From: a virus
Lineage: Duplodnaviria; Heunggongvirae; Uroviricota; Caudoviricetes
IMG/VR virus record: IMGVR_UViG_2778261182_000004
Length of the DNA: 11,477 bases
Direction: 5' to 3' (one strand)
Positions 3,102 through 11,477 of this stretch are shown piece by piece. The notes under the pieces were generated by a model that saw only the letters and a program-made list of their open reading frames with translations, did no database searches and was not told the origin of the DNA. Both the position numbers and the translations under genes were made by a program. Numbering within the stretch: the stretch's first letter is position 1; each line of letters starts with the position of its first letter.

Positions 3102-3547
3102 TTACTTAAGACCTCATCAATAGCCTGATTCATTCGCTGTATGGCAACCTGCGCCGCCAGCTCCTCTGTCGTATCGAAAGCCGGGCGAATGAATGGATGC
3201 GCGGGCATGTTTATCGTTCCCAGCTCCACAAAGCGCCAGTAAAACGCATTTCGGGGATCGCTGGCTTTCATGCTGTTATCACTGTTTCCGGTTCGCAGGT
3301 TCCGTCCGCGAATGTGGACACCCGAGATAATTTCCCCCCGACGTTTTGAACGCTGCGTGAGAACAACCACATTTTTCTTCAGTTTCCCGGTTCGCTCCGG
3401 CGCACGTTCAACAACTGCATCCCGCATAACTTCAGCACCGGCACGGGTGGCATCGCGCAGAACCTTATTGTTTTCTGCCCTGCTGAGCGTATCCAGATCC
3501 CGTGCAATATCCGCCAGGCCGGAAAAATCAAGACTGAAATCCATCAC
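3098..3547 (-). CDS. Neck or tail-completion protein (HK97 gp10-like)
   Basis: 149 aa. The track start at 3547 is a GTG; an ATG at 3544..3542 shares one base with the upstream TGA stop and may be the real start. Confidence 0.55.
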   Translation of the reverse strand: MMDFSLDFSGLADIARDLDTLSRAENNKVLRDATRAGAEVMRDAVVERAPERTGKLKKNVVVLTQRSKRRGEIISGVHIRGRNLRTGNSDNSMKASDPRNAFYWRFVELGTINMPAHPFIRPAFDTTEELAAQVAIQRMNQAIDEVLSK

Positions 3548-4284: not shown

Positions 4285-5502
4285 TTATTTGCCAGTGAGC
4301 GCCTTAATGGCTGCCACATCTTCCAGCACACAGTCAAAACGATGGAAAGCCAGAAATGCCACCTGATCAAACTCAGCATAACGCTCAACCAGACGTTTCA
4401 GTTCCATATAAGTAACGCGGCGAATGATAAAGCGGTTGAAATCCCCCAGGAAAATGAATTTTTTCCCGGTACCAATCCCGTCAATAGCCTGATCAATAAC
4501 ATAAGGGATCCCCAGCACAGTAGCTGGCGTACCGCCTGCAATATCCGGCAGCCATAACGGGCGTTTCTGTCCATCCTCCATCTCTTCAATAGTCTGCAAT
4601 GTGGCATCATTGAATGCCCAGCGGTATTTCGGCCCACCACGATATGCCGGATCAATGGCATGTTTCAGGGCATTCATTTCTTTCCAGGTGAAAGCGGCAG
4701 AAGCTGCAGTCTGGATAGTTCCCGTCACCGACGCTGCCAGCCCTTTTGGCTGTAACGGTGATCCCGTTCCGGTCCCCTGAACCAGATATTTTGCCTCTCC
4801 ACGACCAATACGCTGGGCAATACGGTTTGCCAGATAAGATTCAATATCCACCCCACTGTCCTGGAGCAGCTCATTGGACACACGAATTATTTTTGATGAC
4901 AGCTTTTTAGCCCCCAGAATAGCAGTCCCGAACGTCACATCCTGCTCCGTTGCGGCTGTATTTTCCGCCAGCAGTTCGCCCTCTTCAGTCGTGCCGTCAG
5001 ACGTTGACCAGGTGATATCCTGCCCGGTTGATGTGGTCAGAAGTTGTGCCACACTGGCAATCCCGCCATAAGCCTTCATGGTGTCAATGATTTTGTTACG
5101 CATCTGCGTGGGCACCGTATATCCGCCCTGAGAATCCGTTGTTACACTCTGAGCCCGCAGTTCACGCATCAGATTACGCTCTTCAGCATTCAGTTCTGCA
5201 AATCCGGCACGCAGAAAACGGTTAAATGCCGCAGCACGCTTCTCTTCCACCGCCTTTTTCCCGTTCTCCGCCTCATTATTCTGGCGCTCTTCCGGCCCGG
5301 ACTCATCCACATATGCCTGATCCTGACGGCGCAACTCTTCTTCACGGGCGATTTGCTCATCCAGCGCATCCAGCTCAGCTTTCGCCCTGTTCCACTCAGC
5401 CCGTTGCTCATCAGTCCATGCGTTATCACCAATTTTTTCATGCAGTGCACGCATATCCTTTGCAATGGTGTTTCGTTTTTGCTTCATCTCATGAAGTTTC
5501 AT
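4285..5502 (-). CDS. Major capsid protein, HK97 fold, with N-terminal delta (scaffolding) domain
   Basis: 405 aa; the first ~100 residues are charged and Ala/Glu/Arg-rich (coiled-coil-like), followed by a capsid-like body. No separate scaffold gene. Confidence 0.9.
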   Translation of the reverse strand: MKLHEMKQKRNTIAKDMRALHEKIGDNAWTDEQRAEWNRAKAELDALDEQIAREEELRRQDQAYVDESGPEERQNNEAENGKKAVEEKRAAAFNRFLRAGFAELNAEERNLMRELRAQSVTTDSQGGYTVPTQMRNKIIDTMKAYGGIASVAQLLTTSTGQDITWSTSDGTTEEGELLAENTAATEQDVTFGTAILGAKKLSSKIIRVSNELLQDSGVDIESYLANRIAQRIGRGEAKYLVQGTGTGSPLQPKGLAASVTGTIQTAASAAFTWKEMNALKHAIDPAYRGGPKYRWAFNDATLQTIEEMEDGQKRPLWLPDIAGGTPATVLGIPYVIDQAIDGIGTGKKFIFLGDFNRFIIRRVTYMELKRLVERYAEFDQVAFLAFHRFDCVLEDVAAIKALTGK

Positions 5503-5516
5503 CGTCAGTAGTATCC

Positions 5517-6116
5517 TTATGCATTAAGAAGGGTCAAAAGGCGCTCACGCGCCATTCGTTCATTAACAGCTTTCTTCAGCGCACCACTCGCCCGCGCTTC
5601 CTGCCAGGCTTTCATTGAGCGGACACCGGAGTCTGCGTCCTGATAGGCCGGATATGTCACCGGGCTGACATCATACAGACGGGAAATGCGCGTGATTTCC
5701 CGGATAACAATCCCCTCGTCATCTCCATACCAGCTCTCTCCGTCACGAGCGACACGAAACGCGAACGAGGACTGATTAATGTCACCACGCAACATCGGAG
5801 ACAGCACCAGGTCACAAATAGTCGGAGTATCCGGTGCAACAATGTCATAACGTAAACCGCGTTCATCCACCGACAATGACAACGTGCCGGCAGAACTTCG
5901 TCCGAGAATGAAATTAGGATCATGATTAAACAAGCCTCGTACATCATCATTCAGTACATCGTCAAAAGCCCCCGGCTTGATGATTTCACGAAATCCCCAC
6001 AGAGGTTCTGAACGACTGTTAAATACCGAGCCATACCCCAGAATGTGGGTCGGGGCATTATCATATTGTTCCGCCCGCACCTCCCCGCTGTAACAGCGCG
6101 TTTCACGGTCATTCAT
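5517..6116 (-). CDS. Prohead maturation protease (HK97 family)
   Basis: 199 aa, between portal and major capsid gene, the canonical position and size for this protease family. Confidence 0.85.
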   Translation of the reverse strand: MNDRETRCYSGEVRAEQYDNAPTHILGYGSVFNSRSEPLWGFREIIKPGAFDDVLNDDVRGLFNHDPNFILGRSSAGTLSLSVDERGLRYDIVAPDTPTICDLVLSPMLRGDINQSSFAFRVARDGESWYGDDEGIVIREITRISRLYDVSPVTYPAYQDADSGVRSMKAWQEARASGALKKAVNERMARERLLTLLNA

Positions 6117-7335
6117 CGTTCTTTTCCTCTTTGCCTTTCGTATCTTTAAAGTTATTCAACGGATTTGCTGCATTTACGCTGACCAGCATTTCATCCAGAC
6201 CGTCAACCGGGTTCATGTCCTCAAATGCCCTGGCTTCATTCCGGCTCATCCAGCCATCTGTAATGGCAAAGTGATAGAACTGCGCACGCTCCTGTGGGGT
6301 CCCACGGAGCAACCCCGTGAGGTTGAAACGAACGTAATACCCGGCAGCCCGTTCTGTACGGGTAAACAGGCGACGGTTAAGCTCCTGCTCCCAGTTCGCA
6401 ACCCAGGGCATCATCGTGTAGCGAACAAACTGAATCGCCTGCTGCGTAATATTCGAAAATGTGGCTTTTTCCAGGTCATTAATCATGTGCGCCGGGACAT
6501 TAAAAATCCCGGCAATCATCGACCTGTTCAGCTTGGTCATATCAATGATCTGAGCATCCACCGGAGAAACTGTCAGAGCGCGGTAATCCAGTTGCGCAGG
6601 CAGCAGCATGGTTTTATTTTCCTGACTGCGAAGCGCTGTCACCGCCCGCTGCCACATATTTTTAAGCCTGCTCCAGCTCTGTTCGTTCAGTTCATTTTTC
6701 ACAGAGATAATCCCGGCAGGACGGGCATTACCGTTAAAAAAAGCACTGGTATACTGCTGACCACTCATTCCCATACCAATGGTTTCAGCATGCTGCATGA
6801 TCGGACTCAGTCCCATTTTCTGATTGTTTCCCAGCGCCCTGATATGGATCATGTCGTCCGGACTTACCGCAAATGCACCCTCTTCGTTATACACACCGTA
6901 GGTATGACGCCCTCCGGTGTTAAGTAACGTGGTTTCCCATGGCATACAGCATTCAAGACTGGTAACCTCGCCACGACGATTACGTTTCACCCACGTATAA
7001 CCATTGCCCCACCCCAGCACATGACGCTGCTTCAGTTCCCGCCACTTATAGCTGGTCTGCCAGGCATTCGGTTCATCATGAACGAGCCAGAACAACGGGT
7101 GATCGCGTGCCGGCTGAACATGCTCATTCGTTTTTCGCATCACATGCAGGGGCATCTGAGCCACACTGGATGAAATAACATAAATACAGGCATAGACAGC
7201 AGCCAGCTTCATGGATGTTTCCGGACTGACATACACATCCCGGGCAAAAATATTATCCGTCTCAGCGGCCTCTCCGGTTACCGGAACCGAGGGATTTTCC
7301 AGAGGCTCACTGCGAAACAGAGCATCAAGAAGCAT
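6109..7335 (-). CDS. Portal protein
   Basis: 408 aa; AGGAG 6-7 nt upstream of the ATG; follows TerL and its stop overlaps the protease start. Confidence 0.85.
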   Translation of the reverse strand: MLLDALFRSEPLENPSVPVTGEAAETDNIFARDVYVSPETSMKLAAVYACIYVISSSVAQMPLHVMRKTNEHVQPARDHPLFWLVHDEPNAWQTSYKWRELKQRHVLGWGNGYTWVKRNRRGEVTSLECCMPWETTLLNTGGRHTYGVYNEEGAFAVSPDDMIHIRALGNNQKMGLSPIMQHAETIGMGMSGQQYTSAFFNGNARPAGIISVKNELNEQSWSRLKNMWQRAVTALRSQENKTMLLPAQLDYRALTVSPVDAQIIDMTKLNRSMIAGIFNVPAHMINDLEKATFSNITQQAIQFVRYTMMPWVANWEQELNRRLFTRTERAAGYYVRFNLTGLLRGTPQERAQFYHFAITDGWMSRNEARAFEDMNPVDGLDEMLVSVNAANPLNNFKDTKGKEEKNDE

Positions 7336-7465
7336 GTTTTCTCCTCATGGACACCACCAGTGCATAAAGCAGCAGCAAACAGCCAGACAGCATCAGAGAC
7401 GCTGGCAGACCTGCATACAGATAAACGCCAGCAGTGAGCAGACCGAAACCGATCAGCCCGGTCAT
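7325..7465 (-). CDS. Hypothetical 46-aa hydrophobic protein in the TerL-portal gap
   Basis: My own translation: MTGLIGFGLLTAGVYLYAGLPASLMLSGCLLLLYALVVSMRRKHAS. ATG at 7465..7463, 17 nt after the TerL stop; TGA at 7327..7325, overlapping the portal start by 11 nt. No clear Shine-Dalgarno. Not in the ORF track. Confidence 0.3.
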   Translation of the reverse strand: MTGLIGFGLLTAGVYLYAGLPASLMLSGCLLLLYALVVSMRRKHAS

Positions 7466-7482
7466 ATCAGTAATAAGCTGTT

Positions 7483-9240
7483 TCACAGAATTAACAGGTC
7501 CTCATCAGGATCAAGCGTGGACAGAAAGTCATTCACGTCCCCGCCATTTACCAGAAAGCGGCTCATGGCCGTAAAAAGCGCAACAGGGCCGTCGATTTTG
7601 GCTTCAGGCGTGGATTTATTCGGGAAGATATTGTCGTTTTTGTCCGGTTTTACCGTAACGTTAGACATCATCCAGTTCATGACCGGATGATTGCTGTGAT
7701 GGAAACGCCCGGCATAGACCAGTGATTCCGTTTCCTTCATGGCCTCTGACAGATTGCGGACCGTCTGCGGAACCTCCACCAGCGGTATCCCTTCTTCAGC
7801 CAGTGCCAGGCTGAACTGCATCGCGCTCCACGGGTCAAATCCCAGTTCCCTGAGGTTTTCACCACCAATCCATTCCAGTAAGTCACTTTTTATCTGAGCA
7901 TGATCGATAACATCACCATCCGTCAGAATCAGCTTATCCATCTCCGCCCACTTCCGGTAAAGTTCTGCCTGCTGCCGCGAGCATCGTTCCAGCCGTCCTT
8001 CCGGGAGCCAGAATTTAAAATCGGCATGAACATGCCCGTTATCCGTTCGCCAGAGTTTTGCCGCCGCACAGATATCAATCTTATGAGCAAGGTCAACGCC
8101 GACCCACATGGGATACGTTTTCAGCTCATGTCGTGGGGCAATGTATTCGCACTTCTCCCACTTAATCATGTCCATCCAGGCAGACTCGGCAGTGACCCAC
8201 ACATTCATGTGTTTGGTAAAAAAATTCACCCGCGCAGAGACCTGCTCCTTCGCTTTTTTCGCCAGACGACGCAGATCATCCCAGCGTTTACAGATGCCCA
8301 GGCCAGGATTCGCTTTCTGCCAGACCGTTTCATCAAACGGATCATCTCCCTCATCGAGGGTGTAAATGATCGCAAAGTAAGAGTCGTCTTTTACAGCGCC
8401 CTCCACGTCGCTGTTATAGCCACGCAATACCTTGATGGCGTAATCACGCTGCTCGTAACAAATCCCTTCCTTGTTAAACCCTGCCGTGGTGATACCAAAT
8501 AAAAGGGACTGCAGACGGGCACCGGTTGCCGTTTCCAGAACGTCCCACACGTCACGGGTTTTATGTGCATGCAGCTCATCAATAATGGCGCAGTGGATGT
8601 TCAGACCGTCCAGGTTGTTTGCATCCGAGGAAAGCGGTTCAAATTTTGATGCGCTCTGCTCCTGGTAAATCGCCAGCTTGTTGAAGTCAAACAACCGCCC
8701 GAGTGTCGACCGGGCTTTTCTGACCATATTTTTGGCGTCTTCAAACACGATTCTGGCCTGATCACGCGTGGTTGCGGCTGAATACACCTCAGCCCCGCCT
8801 TCACCATCTGCCCCCGTCATATACAGACCAATACCCGATGACAGGGTTGATTTTGCGTTTTTACGGGCAACTTCGTTGTACGCCGTCCGGAACCGGCGCA
8901 CCATCACCGGGCGTCCGCTGCCATCGCTGCGCATGACAACTTCCCCGGTCTCTTCATTCACCAGCGGAATGACAAAACCAAAAATATTAATGAGGATAAA
9001 TACATGCCAGTCCATCAATTCAATGGGCTGGCCTGCCAGCGCCCCTTTCACATGAGGCACAAATTTGTAGAAATTCAGGATGTGCTGCGCACGGGGTTCA
9101 CTGAAATAAATCCCCCGCTCTTCGCCATACTTCAGATCATCAAGAAAACGCTGGCAGGCCAGACGGACAAATTCGCCAGCGACTATTTCTCCTGCAACAA
9201 CACGTTCGGCGTAGCGGATCCCGTCAGCCACTTTTGCCAT
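7483..9240 (-). CDS. Terminase large subunit
   Basis: 585 aa; ATPase-like N-terminal half with a Walker-A-like KNAKST, nuclease-like C-terminal half; located between TerS and portal. Confidence 0.9.
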   Translation of the reverse strand: MAKVADGIRYAERVVAGEIVAGEFVRLACQRFLDDLKYGEERGIYFSEPRAQHILNFYKFVPHVKGALAGQPIELMDWHVFILINIFGFVIPLVNEETGEVVMRSDGSGRPVMVRRFRTAYNEVARKNAKSTLSSGIGLYMTGADGEGGAEVYSAATTRDQARIVFEDAKNMVRKARSTLGRLFDFNKLAIYQEQSASKFEPLSSDANNLDGLNIHCAIIDELHAHKTRDVWDVLETATGARLQSLLFGITTAGFNKEGICYEQRDYAIKVLRGYNSDVEGAVKDDSYFAIIYTLDEGDDPFDETVWQKANPGLGICKRWDDLRRLAKKAKEQVSARVNFFTKHMNVWVTAESAWMDMIKWEKCEYIAPRHELKTYPMWVGVDLAHKIDICAAAKLWRTDNGHVHADFKFWLPEGRLERCSRQQAELYRKWAEMDKLILTDGDVIDHAQIKSDLLEWIGGENLRELGFDPWSAMQFSLALAEEGIPLVEVPQTVRNLSEAMKETESLVYAGRFHHSNHPVMNWMMSNVTVKPDKNDNIFPNKSTPEAKIDGPVALFTAMSRFLVNGGDVNDFLSTLDPDEDLLIL

Positions 9241-9722
9241 CAGTCTCTCGCTTTTAAAAGCTCTGCCAGCGGATCAACATCATCCGGTCCGGCGGTATTT
9301 ACTTTCGCCCGGCTTGCCGGTGACATACCAAATTCTGCAAGCATCGCCCGGATCCGCTTCCAGGCATCCGCTTTCATCGCAGCAGCCGGGTGTGCCTTAA
9401 TCAGCACATCACCGTTCTGCGTTTCCGTGCGGTAGGTGTACCCCTCAACATCGAGTGTTTCGCAGTGATGCCGGTATTCGGTATAGGCTTCCACCAGTAG
9501 CTCAAGCGCACGCGCATCAAGCTGAGAAATGATCCCTTCCGCATTCAGCTCTTCTGCCATTCGCCTGAACCAGTACTTCCCCTGCGCCCCTAAATGTCGC
9601 GGAGTTTTAGGTATCCCTTTTTCATCCTTTTTAGCGGTTTTTTTGGGGTCTTTAACGGGGCGCTTTGAGGGGTTGCCTCGTATCAAATGCAGGCGTGGCG
9701 GGGTTTTCGGGGGTCCAGACAT
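9240..9722 (-). CDS. Terminase small subunit (P27-family-like)
   Basis: N-terminal PPKTPPRLHLIRGNPSKRP resembles the GNPxKRP motif I recall for P27-family small terminases. Its TGA stop shares an ATGA overlap with the TerL start. Confidence 0.75.
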   Translation of the reverse strand: MSGPPKTPPRLHLIRGNPSKRPVKDPKKTAKKDEKGIPKTPRHLGAQGKYWFRRMAEELNAEGIISQLDARALELLVEAYTEYRHHCETLDVEGYTYRTETQNGDVLIKAHPAAAMKADAWKRIRAMLAEFGMSPASRAKVNTAGPDDVDPLAELLKARD

Positions 9723-9869
9723 AATCGGTTTTACCTATCAATCATTCAATCACATTCCAAAAAAAAGTTTTCGAACCTGCGGCGATGCGAGGAAGGGTCA
9801 GGCGGCGGTACTGAGCAGCCAGAGCTGCAGAGATTTGACCCGCCCCTCCCCTACAGATGGGAACTGTTA
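9723..9869. other. Intergenic region between HNH and TerS; possible cos / terminase recognition region
   Basis: 147-bp non-coding gap in an otherwise compact operon, at the position where HK97-like phages carry cos. GC-rich core (GGGTCAGGCGGCGGTACTGAGCAGCCAGAGCTGCAG) after an A-rich tract. Assignment is positional only. Confidence 0.25.
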
Positions 9870-10220
9870 TCAATTGATGCGTTCGCGCGCTGTTTTTGCT
9901 TTATGACAGGGCCAGCACAGACTCTGCAGGTTACTGTCTGCATCCGTGCCACCATGAGCTTTCGGAATGATGTGGTCCACAGTTCTGGCTTCAACGGCTA
10001 TCCCATTGCGCAGGCAGTTCTGACACAGATGATTATCACGCTTCAGTATGCGCGCACGTATGGCATCCCATTTCGAGCCATAGCCACGCTGGTGGCGGCT
10101 CAGTCCGCGCTGGTGCTGCACCCAGCCTTCACCCCGATGTTTATCGCAGTAACCAGAACTGTCTGTGGTTGTACCTGCACATCCACGCTTACGGCAGGCG
10201 CGTGGGATTAGTGATGGCAT
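9870..10220 (-). CDS. HNH endonuclease, terminase-associated (HK97 gp74-like)
   Basis: Cys and His pattern (C..C...H...C..C, DHIIPKAHGG, CWPCH) typical of HNH zinc-finger nucleases; GAGGAG upstream of the ATG; sits immediately upstream of the small terminase gene. Confidence 0.85.
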   Translation of the reverse strand: MPSLIPRACRKRGCAGTTTDSSGYCDKHRGEGWVQHQRGLSRHQRGYGSKWDAIRARILKRDNHLCQNCLRNGIAVEARTVDHIIPKAHGGTDADSNLQSLCWPCHKAKTARERIN

Positions 10221-10263
10221 AGAATTGCGCTCCTCTAAAAAAATATTCTGCTCTCACCGTCGG

Positions 10264-10446
10264 TCAGTTCTGCATACACTGCCGGACACTATCAACAATT
10301 TCGCAGACCTGAGAAGCTGTATCGAAAAGCTGGTGCGCCTTATCCAGGCTGACGCATCCCACCAATAAAAAAGGCACCAGTATCGCTACCAGTGCCCATT
10401 TCGCCGCCGTTCGCGGCATTCTGTGTGTCCAGTGTTTTCGGCTCAT
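10264..10446 (-). CDS. Hypothetical small lipoprotein or signal-anchored protein with Cys-containing C-terminal region
   Basis: ORF track 60 aa. Segment MPRTAAKWALVAILVPFLLVGC is a canonical signal peptide ending in a lipobox-like LVGC; the short mature part has three Cys (VCEIVDSVRQC). The real start may be the internal Met (ATG 10419..10417). Confidence 0.45.
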   Translation of the reverse strand: MSRKHWTHRMPRTAAKWALVAILVPFLLVGCVSLDKAHQLFDTASQVCEIVDSVRQCMQN

Positions 10447-10447
10447 A

Positions 10448-10561
10448 TCACCACCAACGCACAGCCCAAATCAGAACAGCGACCGCCACAAGGCGAATTG
10501 CAAAGGCCGCAGCCCTTGTCAAATCAAGGCTCGCGGGAGTTTCCACTTCAATACCTTTCAT
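10448..10561 (-). CDS. Hypothetical 37-aa membrane peptide, polar N-terminus and C-terminal hydrophobic segment
   Basis: My own translation: MKGIEVETPASLDLTRAAAFAIRLVAVAVLIWAVRWW. ATG at 10561..10559 with GAGG 9 nt upstream; TGA stop at 10450..10448, 1 nt before the next gene's ATG. Below the ORF track size cutoff. Confidence 0.3.
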   Translation of the reverse strand: MKGIEVETPASLDLTRAAAFAIRLVAVAVLIWAVRWW

Positions 10562-10789: not shown

Positions 10790-11335
10790 TTAAACTGCTA
10801 CGCGCTCTTTCATCCAGCCGTAGACAAACGACTCGTTGGCCTCGCGTTTTTCTGCCAGCTCCAGATAGCGGTCGCCCTGCGTGCAATTCAGCGCCTTCAG
10901 CATCACCAGTTCGCCGTCTTTGCCGCGTTTTTGCAGATAAGTCCGTAGTGCATTAATCGTGCGGGGGCCGATACGCCCGTCTGCGTCCATATCCGGGAAC
11001 AATTTGCCTTGCAGGTTGAAAACGTTCAGCCAGCGCTGGAGCATTTTCGATGCTACGGACGGCCCCATATTCACACCGGTATCACACAACTCTGCAGCAA
11101 TATCAGAGGATAATGCGGCCACCTGATCAAAGCGTGGTCCGAACCAGTAATCCTCCTCAAGGATTTCCAGCGCCTGTTCGCGTGTCAGGTCACGCATATC
11201 GCCCTGATATCCGTGAGCGCGGGCGACTTTTTCCGTAATACCCCATTTTGTCGGTCCGCCTTTATCATCCGGGTGATTGACGTAACCGCCCTCTTTTCCC
11301 AGAACTTCGTCAAAAATTTCATCTTTCGACTTCAT
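10790..11335 (-). CDS. Endolysin, GH108-like N-terminal domain with probable peptidoglycan-binding C-terminal domain
   Basis: N-terminal motif EGGYVNHPDDKGGPTKWGIT matches my recollection of the glycoside hydrolase 108 family; no signal or SAR segment. The ORF track starts at 11356 on a TTG codon; an ATG at 11335..11333 preceded by GAAGG about 7 nt upstream is the more likely start. Confidence 0.75.
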   Translation of the reverse strand: MKSKDEIFDEVLGKEGGYVNHPDDKGGPTKWGITEKVARAHGYQGDMRDLTREQALEILEEDYWFGPRFDQVAALSSDIAAELCDTGVNMGPSVASKMLQRWLNVFNLQGKLFPDMDADGRIGPRTINALRTYLQKRGKDGELVMLKALNCTQGDRYLELAEKREANESFVYGWMKERVAV

Positions 11336-11336
11336 A

Positions 11337-11477
11337 TCAGCGCCTTCGTAATACAAAGATTTTTGAAACGTTTCCGCGTGCGCGAATCACCAACACGCAG
11401 AACAGCAGATTAAGCCCAACCGCCAGCCAGTTCGCCGCTAACGGGCGACCGCACAGATAGCTGAGTGGCGCAAAGGC
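11337..11477 (-). CDS. Putative holin, C-terminal part only (5' end beyond window)
   Basis: My own translation of the minus strand from 11477 gives 46 open codons, AFAPLSYLCGRPLAANWLAVGLNLLFCVLVIRARGNVSKIFVLRRR, ending TGA at 11339..11337, one nt before the endolysin ATG. Hydrophobic stretch plus basic tail and position directly upstream of the endolysin fit a holin. Not in the ORF track because it is incomplete. Confidence 0.4.
   Translation of the reverse strand, partial: AFAPLSYLCGRPLAANWLAVGLNLLFCVLVIRARGNVSKIFVLRRR

Follow-up and report, generated by a model that had tools for sequence, protein, structure and literature searches.

A predicted HK97-type cos region between the HNH endonuclease and small terminase genes of a prophage family common in Escherichia coli

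HNH endonuclease genes are established neighbours of cos and the terminase genes (PMC3592412) and, in phage HK97, the HNH protein gp74 stimulates terminase cutting at cos (PMC9410871; PMC13595911). The window analysed here, a stretch of 11,477 nucleotides of tailed-phage DNA, carries a non-coding gap between an HNH gene and a small terminase gene, which raises the question of whether the gap holds cos and, if so, at which bases the DNA would be cut. The relevant genes all lie on the minus strand:

10790-11356, minus strand: GH108-type endolysin gene
9870-10220, minus strand: HNH endonuclease gene, 116 aa (Pfam HNH PF01844, E 4e-16, model positions 1-47 of 47)
9723-9869, minus strand: non-coding gap of 147 bp, very probably holding the cos region (ORF list; unannotated in RefSeq relatives)
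9240-9722, minus strand: small terminase (TerS) gene, 160 aa, P27 family (Pfam Terminase_4 PF05119, E 1.6e-25)
7483-9240, minus strand: large terminase (TerL) gene, 585 aa (Pfam TerL_ATPase and TerL_nuclease domains)
7325-7486, minus strand: conserved 53-codon ORF between the terL and portal genes, with no Pfam match
6109-7335, minus strand: portal gene
5517-6116, minus strand: S78 prohead protease gene
4285-5502, minus strand: HK97-fold major capsid protein gene

The open reading frames and the Pfam matches agree on the layout described in the initial annotation, with an HNH gene beside the small terminase gene and 147 bp between them. The gap, which had been called one of only a few sizeable non-coding stretches, is longer than any other intergenic stretch in the terminase-head operon, where the remaining junctions overlap or measure at most 76 nt. 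In RefSeq, a 97.5%-identical E. coli prophage is annotated with identical gene calls and an empty gap, and relatives name TerS 'phage terminase small subunit P27 family'. The HNH protein has an N-terminal zinc-ribbon-like segment (CxxxxC...CxxxH) and, after it, a catalytic HNH domain that is intact by Pfam, and matches over its full length the terminase-associated HNH protein of Geobacillus virus E2 (PDB 5h0m, E 2.7e-14). The window covers part of the prophage only, and the prophage family is very common in E. coli, with matches in 1523 of 5426 complete genomes and a best identity of ~97%.

Two features flanking this module were recorded on the way. The only terminator-like hairpin detected, with 11 pairs followed by a T-run, lies at 10372-10397 on the minus strand, in the interval that separates the lysis-region ORFs from the HNH gene, upstream of the latter; the window's best E. 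coli matches stop at ~10220 or 10455, which points to a mosaic joint near the hairpin. At the place of the 53-codon ORF, relatives carry a small ORF that RefSeq lists as a hypothetical protein of 53 codons, and phiP27 (P27p37) and SfI (gp03) have a 60-codon ORF annotated 'membrane protein'.

To locate a cut site within the gap, we aligned it with the cos regions of characterised HK97-like phages, joining the two ends of any record opened at cos or close to it and reading all sequences in the direction of transcription. Megablast of the region had retrieved phiP27, the record of which has a 10-nt "cos-site" feature in the equivalent gap. With slashes marking the limits of the overhangs, the window reads GGGGAGGGGCGGGTCAAATC-TCTGCAGCTCTGGCTGCTCAGTAC/CGCCGCCTGA/CCCTTCCTCGCATCGCCGCAGGTTCGAAAACTTTTTTTT and the HK97 record ends GGGGGGGGATCAAATC-TTCAAAACCTTTGCCCCAAATGAC/CGCCGCCAAA/, its start being GTTTGAATTTAACGCTAACCCGATTTTTTTAG. 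SfI reads GGGGCGGGTCAAATC, 24 nt ending in GGAC, then /TGCCCGCCCC/ and the record end, and phiP27 reads GGGAC/CGCCCGCCCC/GTC. The HK97, SfI and phiP27 sites all fall on 9798-9807 of the window, where CGCCGCCTGA aligns base for base with CGCCGCCAAA, the terminus of the right end of HK97 virion DNA. The architecture of the gap thus equals that of the joined HK97 record ends, which supports the earlier proposal that cos lies between the HNH and terS genes as in HK97. Read on the minus strand, the gap consists of a G-rich box (G-box), 24 nt, CGCCGCCTGA, 11 nt and ATCGCCGCAGGTTCGAAAACTTTTTTTT:

9832-9851, minus strand: G-box GGGGAGGGGCGGGTCAAATC, candidate upstream cos subsite, lying 24 nt from the predicted inner nick on the side packaged last
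9798-9807, minus strand: predicted cohesive end with a 10-nt 3' overhang, 5'-CGCCGCCTGA-3', from the alignment with HK97, SfI and phiP27
9759-9786, minus strand: ATCGCCGCAGGTTCGAAAACTTTTTTTT, candidate site for recognition by the small terminase, at +12 to +39 relative to the top-strand nick

The ends used in this alignment differ in kind. For HK97, the cos numbering from the cleavage site (T16, C:G at 21, A:T at 24-29 and a 9-bp A-tract; PMC11331095) agrees exactly with bases 1-31 of the GenBank record, so we take the record junction as the mapped top-strand nick; its 3' overhang is described in PMC9410871, and the last 10 nt of the record are CGCCGCCAAA. In the latter paper, the HK97 overhang measures 10 nt according to the legend of Figure 1 and 12 nt according to the Discussion, where lambda has 10 nt; the two numbers may have been swapped, and PMC11331095 gives 10 nt for HK97. 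The 10-nt cos of SfI, TGCCCGCCCC, emerged as a gap when the sequenced virion DNA ends were compared with the prophage (PMC3636060), and the phiP27 cos, CGCCCGCCCC, is a depositor annotation. Two further records were set aside as evidence: the SfV record breaks 7 nt from the aligned site and its cos mechanism is described as postulated (PMC3636060), and the Providencia phage PSTRCR_117lys record, which starts near the site, is circular. The records of closely related phages are not linearised at cos.

Because the HK97, SfI and phiP27 sites align on these bases, we predict a 10-nt 3' overhang CGCCGCCTGA with nicks at 9798/9797 on the minus strand and 9807/9808 on the plus strand, the 3' polarity being assigned by analogy. 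This base-level prediction at 9798-9807 takes the place of a cos somewhere in the gap. Since the SfI and phiP27 core has one C more than the window core, the 3' limit of the predicted overhang could shift by 1-2 nt. Compared with the 10-nt cos of the P27 group, NGCCCGCCCC, the window overhang has one C fewer and another 3' end, and is closer to HK97 CGCCGCCAAA. Altogether, we consider it very probable that 9723-9869 serves as cos region for a temperate phage of the HK97/phiP27 type that is integrated in E. coli.

Intergenic spacers are common before terminase genes, and the gap could in principle be an untranslated spacer or an expression signal of the late operon (a promoter, a terminator or a region of translational coupling), with cos elsewhere in the prophage. 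A T-run after a weak 3-bp palindrome (GTTCGAAAAC) at 9759-9772 would fit such a signal. However, a scan for promoters and terminators detected nothing resembling either within the gap, and an Rfam scan of 9200-10500 at a permissive threshold returned nothing inside it. The sole Rfam match in that interval, tp2 at 9610-9692 on the plus strand within terS (23.7 bits against a gathering score of 50, E 0.41), is a sub-threshold chance match. Searching the gap for repeats revealed no inverted repeats of 7 nt or longer, and its direct repeats are 7-nt chance ones only. We also rejected as a gene a 43-codon ORF at 9742-9873 on the minus strand: it has a TTG start that overlaps the HNH stop, neither a family match nor a start signal, it spans every cos block, and single-base differences in T-run length among relatives alter its C-terminus. 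In further disagreement with a spacer or expression signal, the HK97-type cos motif is confined to the gap within the window, the composite GGGGCGGGTCAAATC-N20-28-GNACNGCC occurring once in 11.5 kb and in 0 of 200 shuffles, and the conserved blocks coincide with the mapped HK97 and SfI ends. We regard this reading as very improbable.

A second alternative is headful packaging, in which TerS would recognise the conserved sequence of the gap, or use it as a pac site, with no fixed staggered cut being made there. The window by itself gives no direct evidence on termini, and the small terminases of pac and cos phages have a common fold (PMC9410871). Against headful packaging, TerL has as homologues the cos enzymes of HK97 (E 8e-42) and of phiP27/SfI-type phages, the gene for an HNH partner, a hallmark of the cos group (PMC3592412; PMC13595911), is present, and HK97 has the identical cut-site core, ACCGCCGCC. 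There is accordingly very little chance, in our judgement, that the prophage is packaged by the headful mode.

A third reading places cos in the gap and the cut at the G-box itself, since the plus strand there, CCCGCCCC (9839-9846), resembles the SfI/phiP27 overhang GCCCGCCCC; over 9838-9851 the plus strand reads ACCCGCCCCTCCCC, an 8/9 match to the SfI core. Yet phiP27, SfI and HK97 carry both elements, and in each of them the mapped or annotated end is the terS-proximal one, 24 nt past the G-box. The end of one metagenome contig (L101, 42,325 bp) also lies after its G-box, not within it: the contig terminates 23 nt past the box, at CCCAGGAC (ending in GGAC), which is the predicted inner nick position. 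As support from a physical end this is a single, anecdotal case, and an IMG/VR search for window-type right arms at contig starts found none. We think a cut at the G-box highly unlikely and retain 9798-9807 as the predicted site.

The G-box recurs at the same place well beyond these phages. The same box with 24-nt spacing to the predicted or mapped inner nick is found in the window, HK97, SfI, phiP27 and mEp235, the box having been noted across loci L010/L011 (HK97), L001, L003, L008 and L014-L213. To avoid circularity, we used TerL homology as the sole criterion for gathering 80 loci from contigs that represent one genome per species. Enterobacterales among them have 73-91% identity, apart from Lonsdalea at 36%, and distant taxa 36-44%. 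Of the 80 loci, 76 were usable, and in these we scored the 370 nt before terS. A G-rich box was present in this zone in 67 of the 76 loci, and the exact 9-mer ACCGCCGCC in 35. In 45 of them an AC(C)GCCG-like core lay no more than 50 nt past the box, compared with 8 such pairs in 724 kb of control sequence taken from the same loci. The loci surveyed, and the related boxes before terS more generally, range from enterobacterial phages to those of Halomonas, Desulfovibrio relatives, Planctomycetota and Gemmatimonadota.

A search of IMG/VR with the exact G-box 15-mer gave a consistent picture. The 15-mer occurs in at least 120 stretches, and ~110 of the matches listed are in an HNH/terminase context. 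Among the matches listed, 83 of 121 occurrences have exactly 20 nt between the box and the GNAC in front of the nick, corresponding to the 24-nt spacing. In a non-redundant subset of these matches, the ORF downstream of the box encodes a Terminase_4 protein in 22 of 27 cases and the ORF upstream an HNH protein in 15 of 24, the latter as called by a crude ORF picker. In GC-rich phages the box overlaps the HNH stop codon, and it is more conserved than any of the proteins.

From these data we tentatively propose, with somewhat less than even confidence, that the G-box, of consensus GG(G)AGGGGCGGGTCAAATC(Y)CT, is an unnamed and near-universal third subsite of HNH-associated cos, located ~24 nt upstream of the inner nick. 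It might dock the HNH protein, or a complex of HNH with TerL, and so fix the distance to the cut; another possibility is a termination signal resembling cosQ, recognised while the box is inside the portal channel or close to it. A full-text literature search with the G-box sequence returned unrelated papers only and no name for the box, the key older literature being beyond its reach. A tRNA T-arm-like reading of GCGGGTCAAATC was rejected by eye, as the loop is one base short and the flanks are unpaired.

Several loci from this survey have unusual arrangements. In the GC-rich, 42.3-kb metagenome contig L101, the G-box overlaps the final HNH codons (9425-9467; ...GRGGSNL and stop). The IMG/VR contig L045 has two G-box/cos/terS starts (3492-3506 and 6363-6377) on the same strand, 2871 bp apart, which could reflect a tandem element, a satellite or an assembly artefact. 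The Symbiopectobacterium purcellii chromosome holds at least 5 copies of the packaging module (L134, L135, L136, L151, L165). In L134, L136, L138 and L140, the G-box and cos core are kept and the sequence just upstream is, by eye, unlike the HNH 3' end found elsewhere.

On the terS-proximal side of the predicted cut, the putative TerS site comprises a GC core, CGCCGC (+14 to +19), followed by an A/T tract, GAAAACTTTTTTTT (+26 to +39). The HK97 small terminase binds at +15 to +29, where it recognises a single G:C pair of ACCCG and depends on the A-tract next to it (PMC11331095), and the position and grammar of the window site match this HK97 site, with its ACCCG core and 9-bp A-tract. Because the window TerS has no detectable sequence similarity to HK97 gp1, with which BLASTP gave no alignment, the site model is transferred from HK97 by position and grammar alone.

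The comparison of related gaps points in the same direction. When 21 distinct gaps of the window type are compared, three elements are invariant, namely the G-box, ACCGCC in the cos core and CATCGCCGCAGGTTCGAAAAC (9766-9787); the spacers vary, and the T-run that follows CATCGCCGCAGGTTCGAAAAC varies in length by one base. Among the TerL-selected loci we distinguished the arm types A (CGCCGCAGGTT), A2 (ACCCGCAGGTT), B (CGCCGCGAAAT) and C (ACCCGCGAAA). Type A, A2 or B is found in 32 of 36 loci with a TerS at least 49% identical to that of the window (the other 4 have no recognised motif), and type C in 11 of 18 loci with a TerS closest to that of phiP27 (the other 7 have no recognised motif), with zero cross-occurrence between the two groups. 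Since its sequence changes with the TerS clade, the block at 9759-9786 is likely to be the small-terminase binding site by analogy with HK97; the arm types and the invariant block lend support to TerS binding there, short of proving it.

The two sides of the predicted cut also appear to have separate histories. DNA similarity between the window and phiP27 (~86%) extends over the HNH gene and the left arm and ends at the overhang. Five IMG/VR hybrids (L047, L071, L115, L121 and L122) join a phiP27-type HNH gene and left arm to a window-type right arm and terS, and in all five the crossover lies within the 10-nt overhang, which makes the cut site a module boundary. Judged from these sequences, exchange moves the HNH gene together with the left arm and G-box, and terS and terL together with the right arm. 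The exchange pattern of the hybrids suggests that one HNH protein (90% identical) serves terminases that are just 37% identical.

We propose the following sequence of events, modelled on HK97, to which we add a putative role for the G-box. A small-terminase ring would bind the GC-core and A/T-tract site at 9759-9786 on concatemeric DNA, by analogy with HK97, and would recruit and position the large terminase, the cut being aided by the HNH protein encoded directly upstream. Two nicks 10 nt apart, at 9798/9797 on the minus strand and 9807/9808 on the plus strand, would leave the 3' overhang CGCCGCCTGA. Packaging would then proceed towards terS, terL and the head genes, that is, along falling window coordinates, so that the HNH gene and the G-box would enter the head last. 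At the next cos, site-bound TerS would stall the motor and trigger the terminal cut, and the G-box at 9832-9851, 24 nt upstream of the inner nick, would act as a third cos subsite on the terminating side.

A base-level cos prediction helps to orient the genome records of this prophage family and to foresee which plasmids or satellites a common E. coli prophage family may mobilise, and is useful for building cos-based packaging vectors. The combination of a G-box at a fixed distance, a nick site and a TerS-specific arm offers a simple rule for finding cos in phages with HNH proteins and P27-type terminases across many phyla, and the G-box points to a further candidate DNA element in the well-studied HK97 packaging system.

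Among known systems, HK97 shares with the window the order HNH (gp74), cos, terS (gp1), terL (gp2), portal, protease and HK97-fold capsid. The two TerL proteins have the same Pfam domains (29% identity to gp2, E 8e-42) and the HNH proteins are homologous (36% identity to gp74 over 70 aa, E 1e-10). In the DNA, both have a G-rich box with TCAAATC at its end, then 24 nt of spacer and CGCCGCC, the cut-site core ACCGCCGCC being identical in the two, and a GC core and A/T tract 12-30 nt downstream. They differ in that the window TerS belongs to Terminase_4, whereas gp1 has no Pfam match; in the N-terminal zinc-ribbon-like CxxxxC...CxxxH segment of the window HNH protein, which gp74 lacks (grouping in PMC3592412); in gap length, 147 bp in the window and 368 bp in HK97; and in the last three bases of the overhang, TGA in the window and AAA in HK97.

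The phiP27/SfI/SfV group has cos at the same position relative to the G-box. The window HNH protein is 90% identical to P27p34 of phiP27, the G-box and left cos arm are ~86% identical in DNA, and TerS matches Pfam Terminase_4 as do those of phiP27, SfV and mEp235. In contrast, TerS is just 21% and TerL 37% (E 4e-115) identical to the phiP27 proteins, the right cos arm is unrelated to that of phiP27, SfI and SfV (ATCGCCGCAGGTT in the window and TTTTTATACCCGCGAAA in the group), and the window core, CGCC-GCC, has one C fewer than their CGCCCGCC. The closest named phage of the window TerS/TerL type is mEp235 (Hendrixvirinae, Nochtlivirus), together with related enterobacterial prophages. A four-way TerL alignment gave identities of 39%, 40% and 86% to the window, the last of which we assign to mEp235 because it is listed last in that alignment. 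The core GGACCGCCGCCTAGCC and the right arm ATCGCCGCAGGTTAGAAAACTTTTTT are common to mEp235 and the window, whereas the mEp235 gap measures 200 bp, with an A/T-rich insert before the G-box; mEp235 records carry no end information because they are linearised at the terS ATG or elsewhere.

The organization of the predicted site also resembles lambda cos (cosQ, cosN and cosB), in that a nicking site is preceded by an element on the terminating side and followed by a region that the small terminase binds. Lambda cos has 12-nt 5' overhangs, is cut by the gpNu1/gpA terminase with no HNH protein, and has a cosB with R sites and an IHF site. The window has no sequence similarity to lambda cos and its TerL has no GpA-type Pfam match, and the gap has no lambda-like R-site set, as it holds no inverted repeats and only 7-nt chance direct repeats. 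By sequence comparison, the nearest kin of the module are mEp235-type phages for TerS and TerL and phiP27 for the HNH protein and left arm, with a cut-site core identical to that of HK97, and the predicted cos module of this prophage belongs to the already known HNH-associated, HK97-type class.
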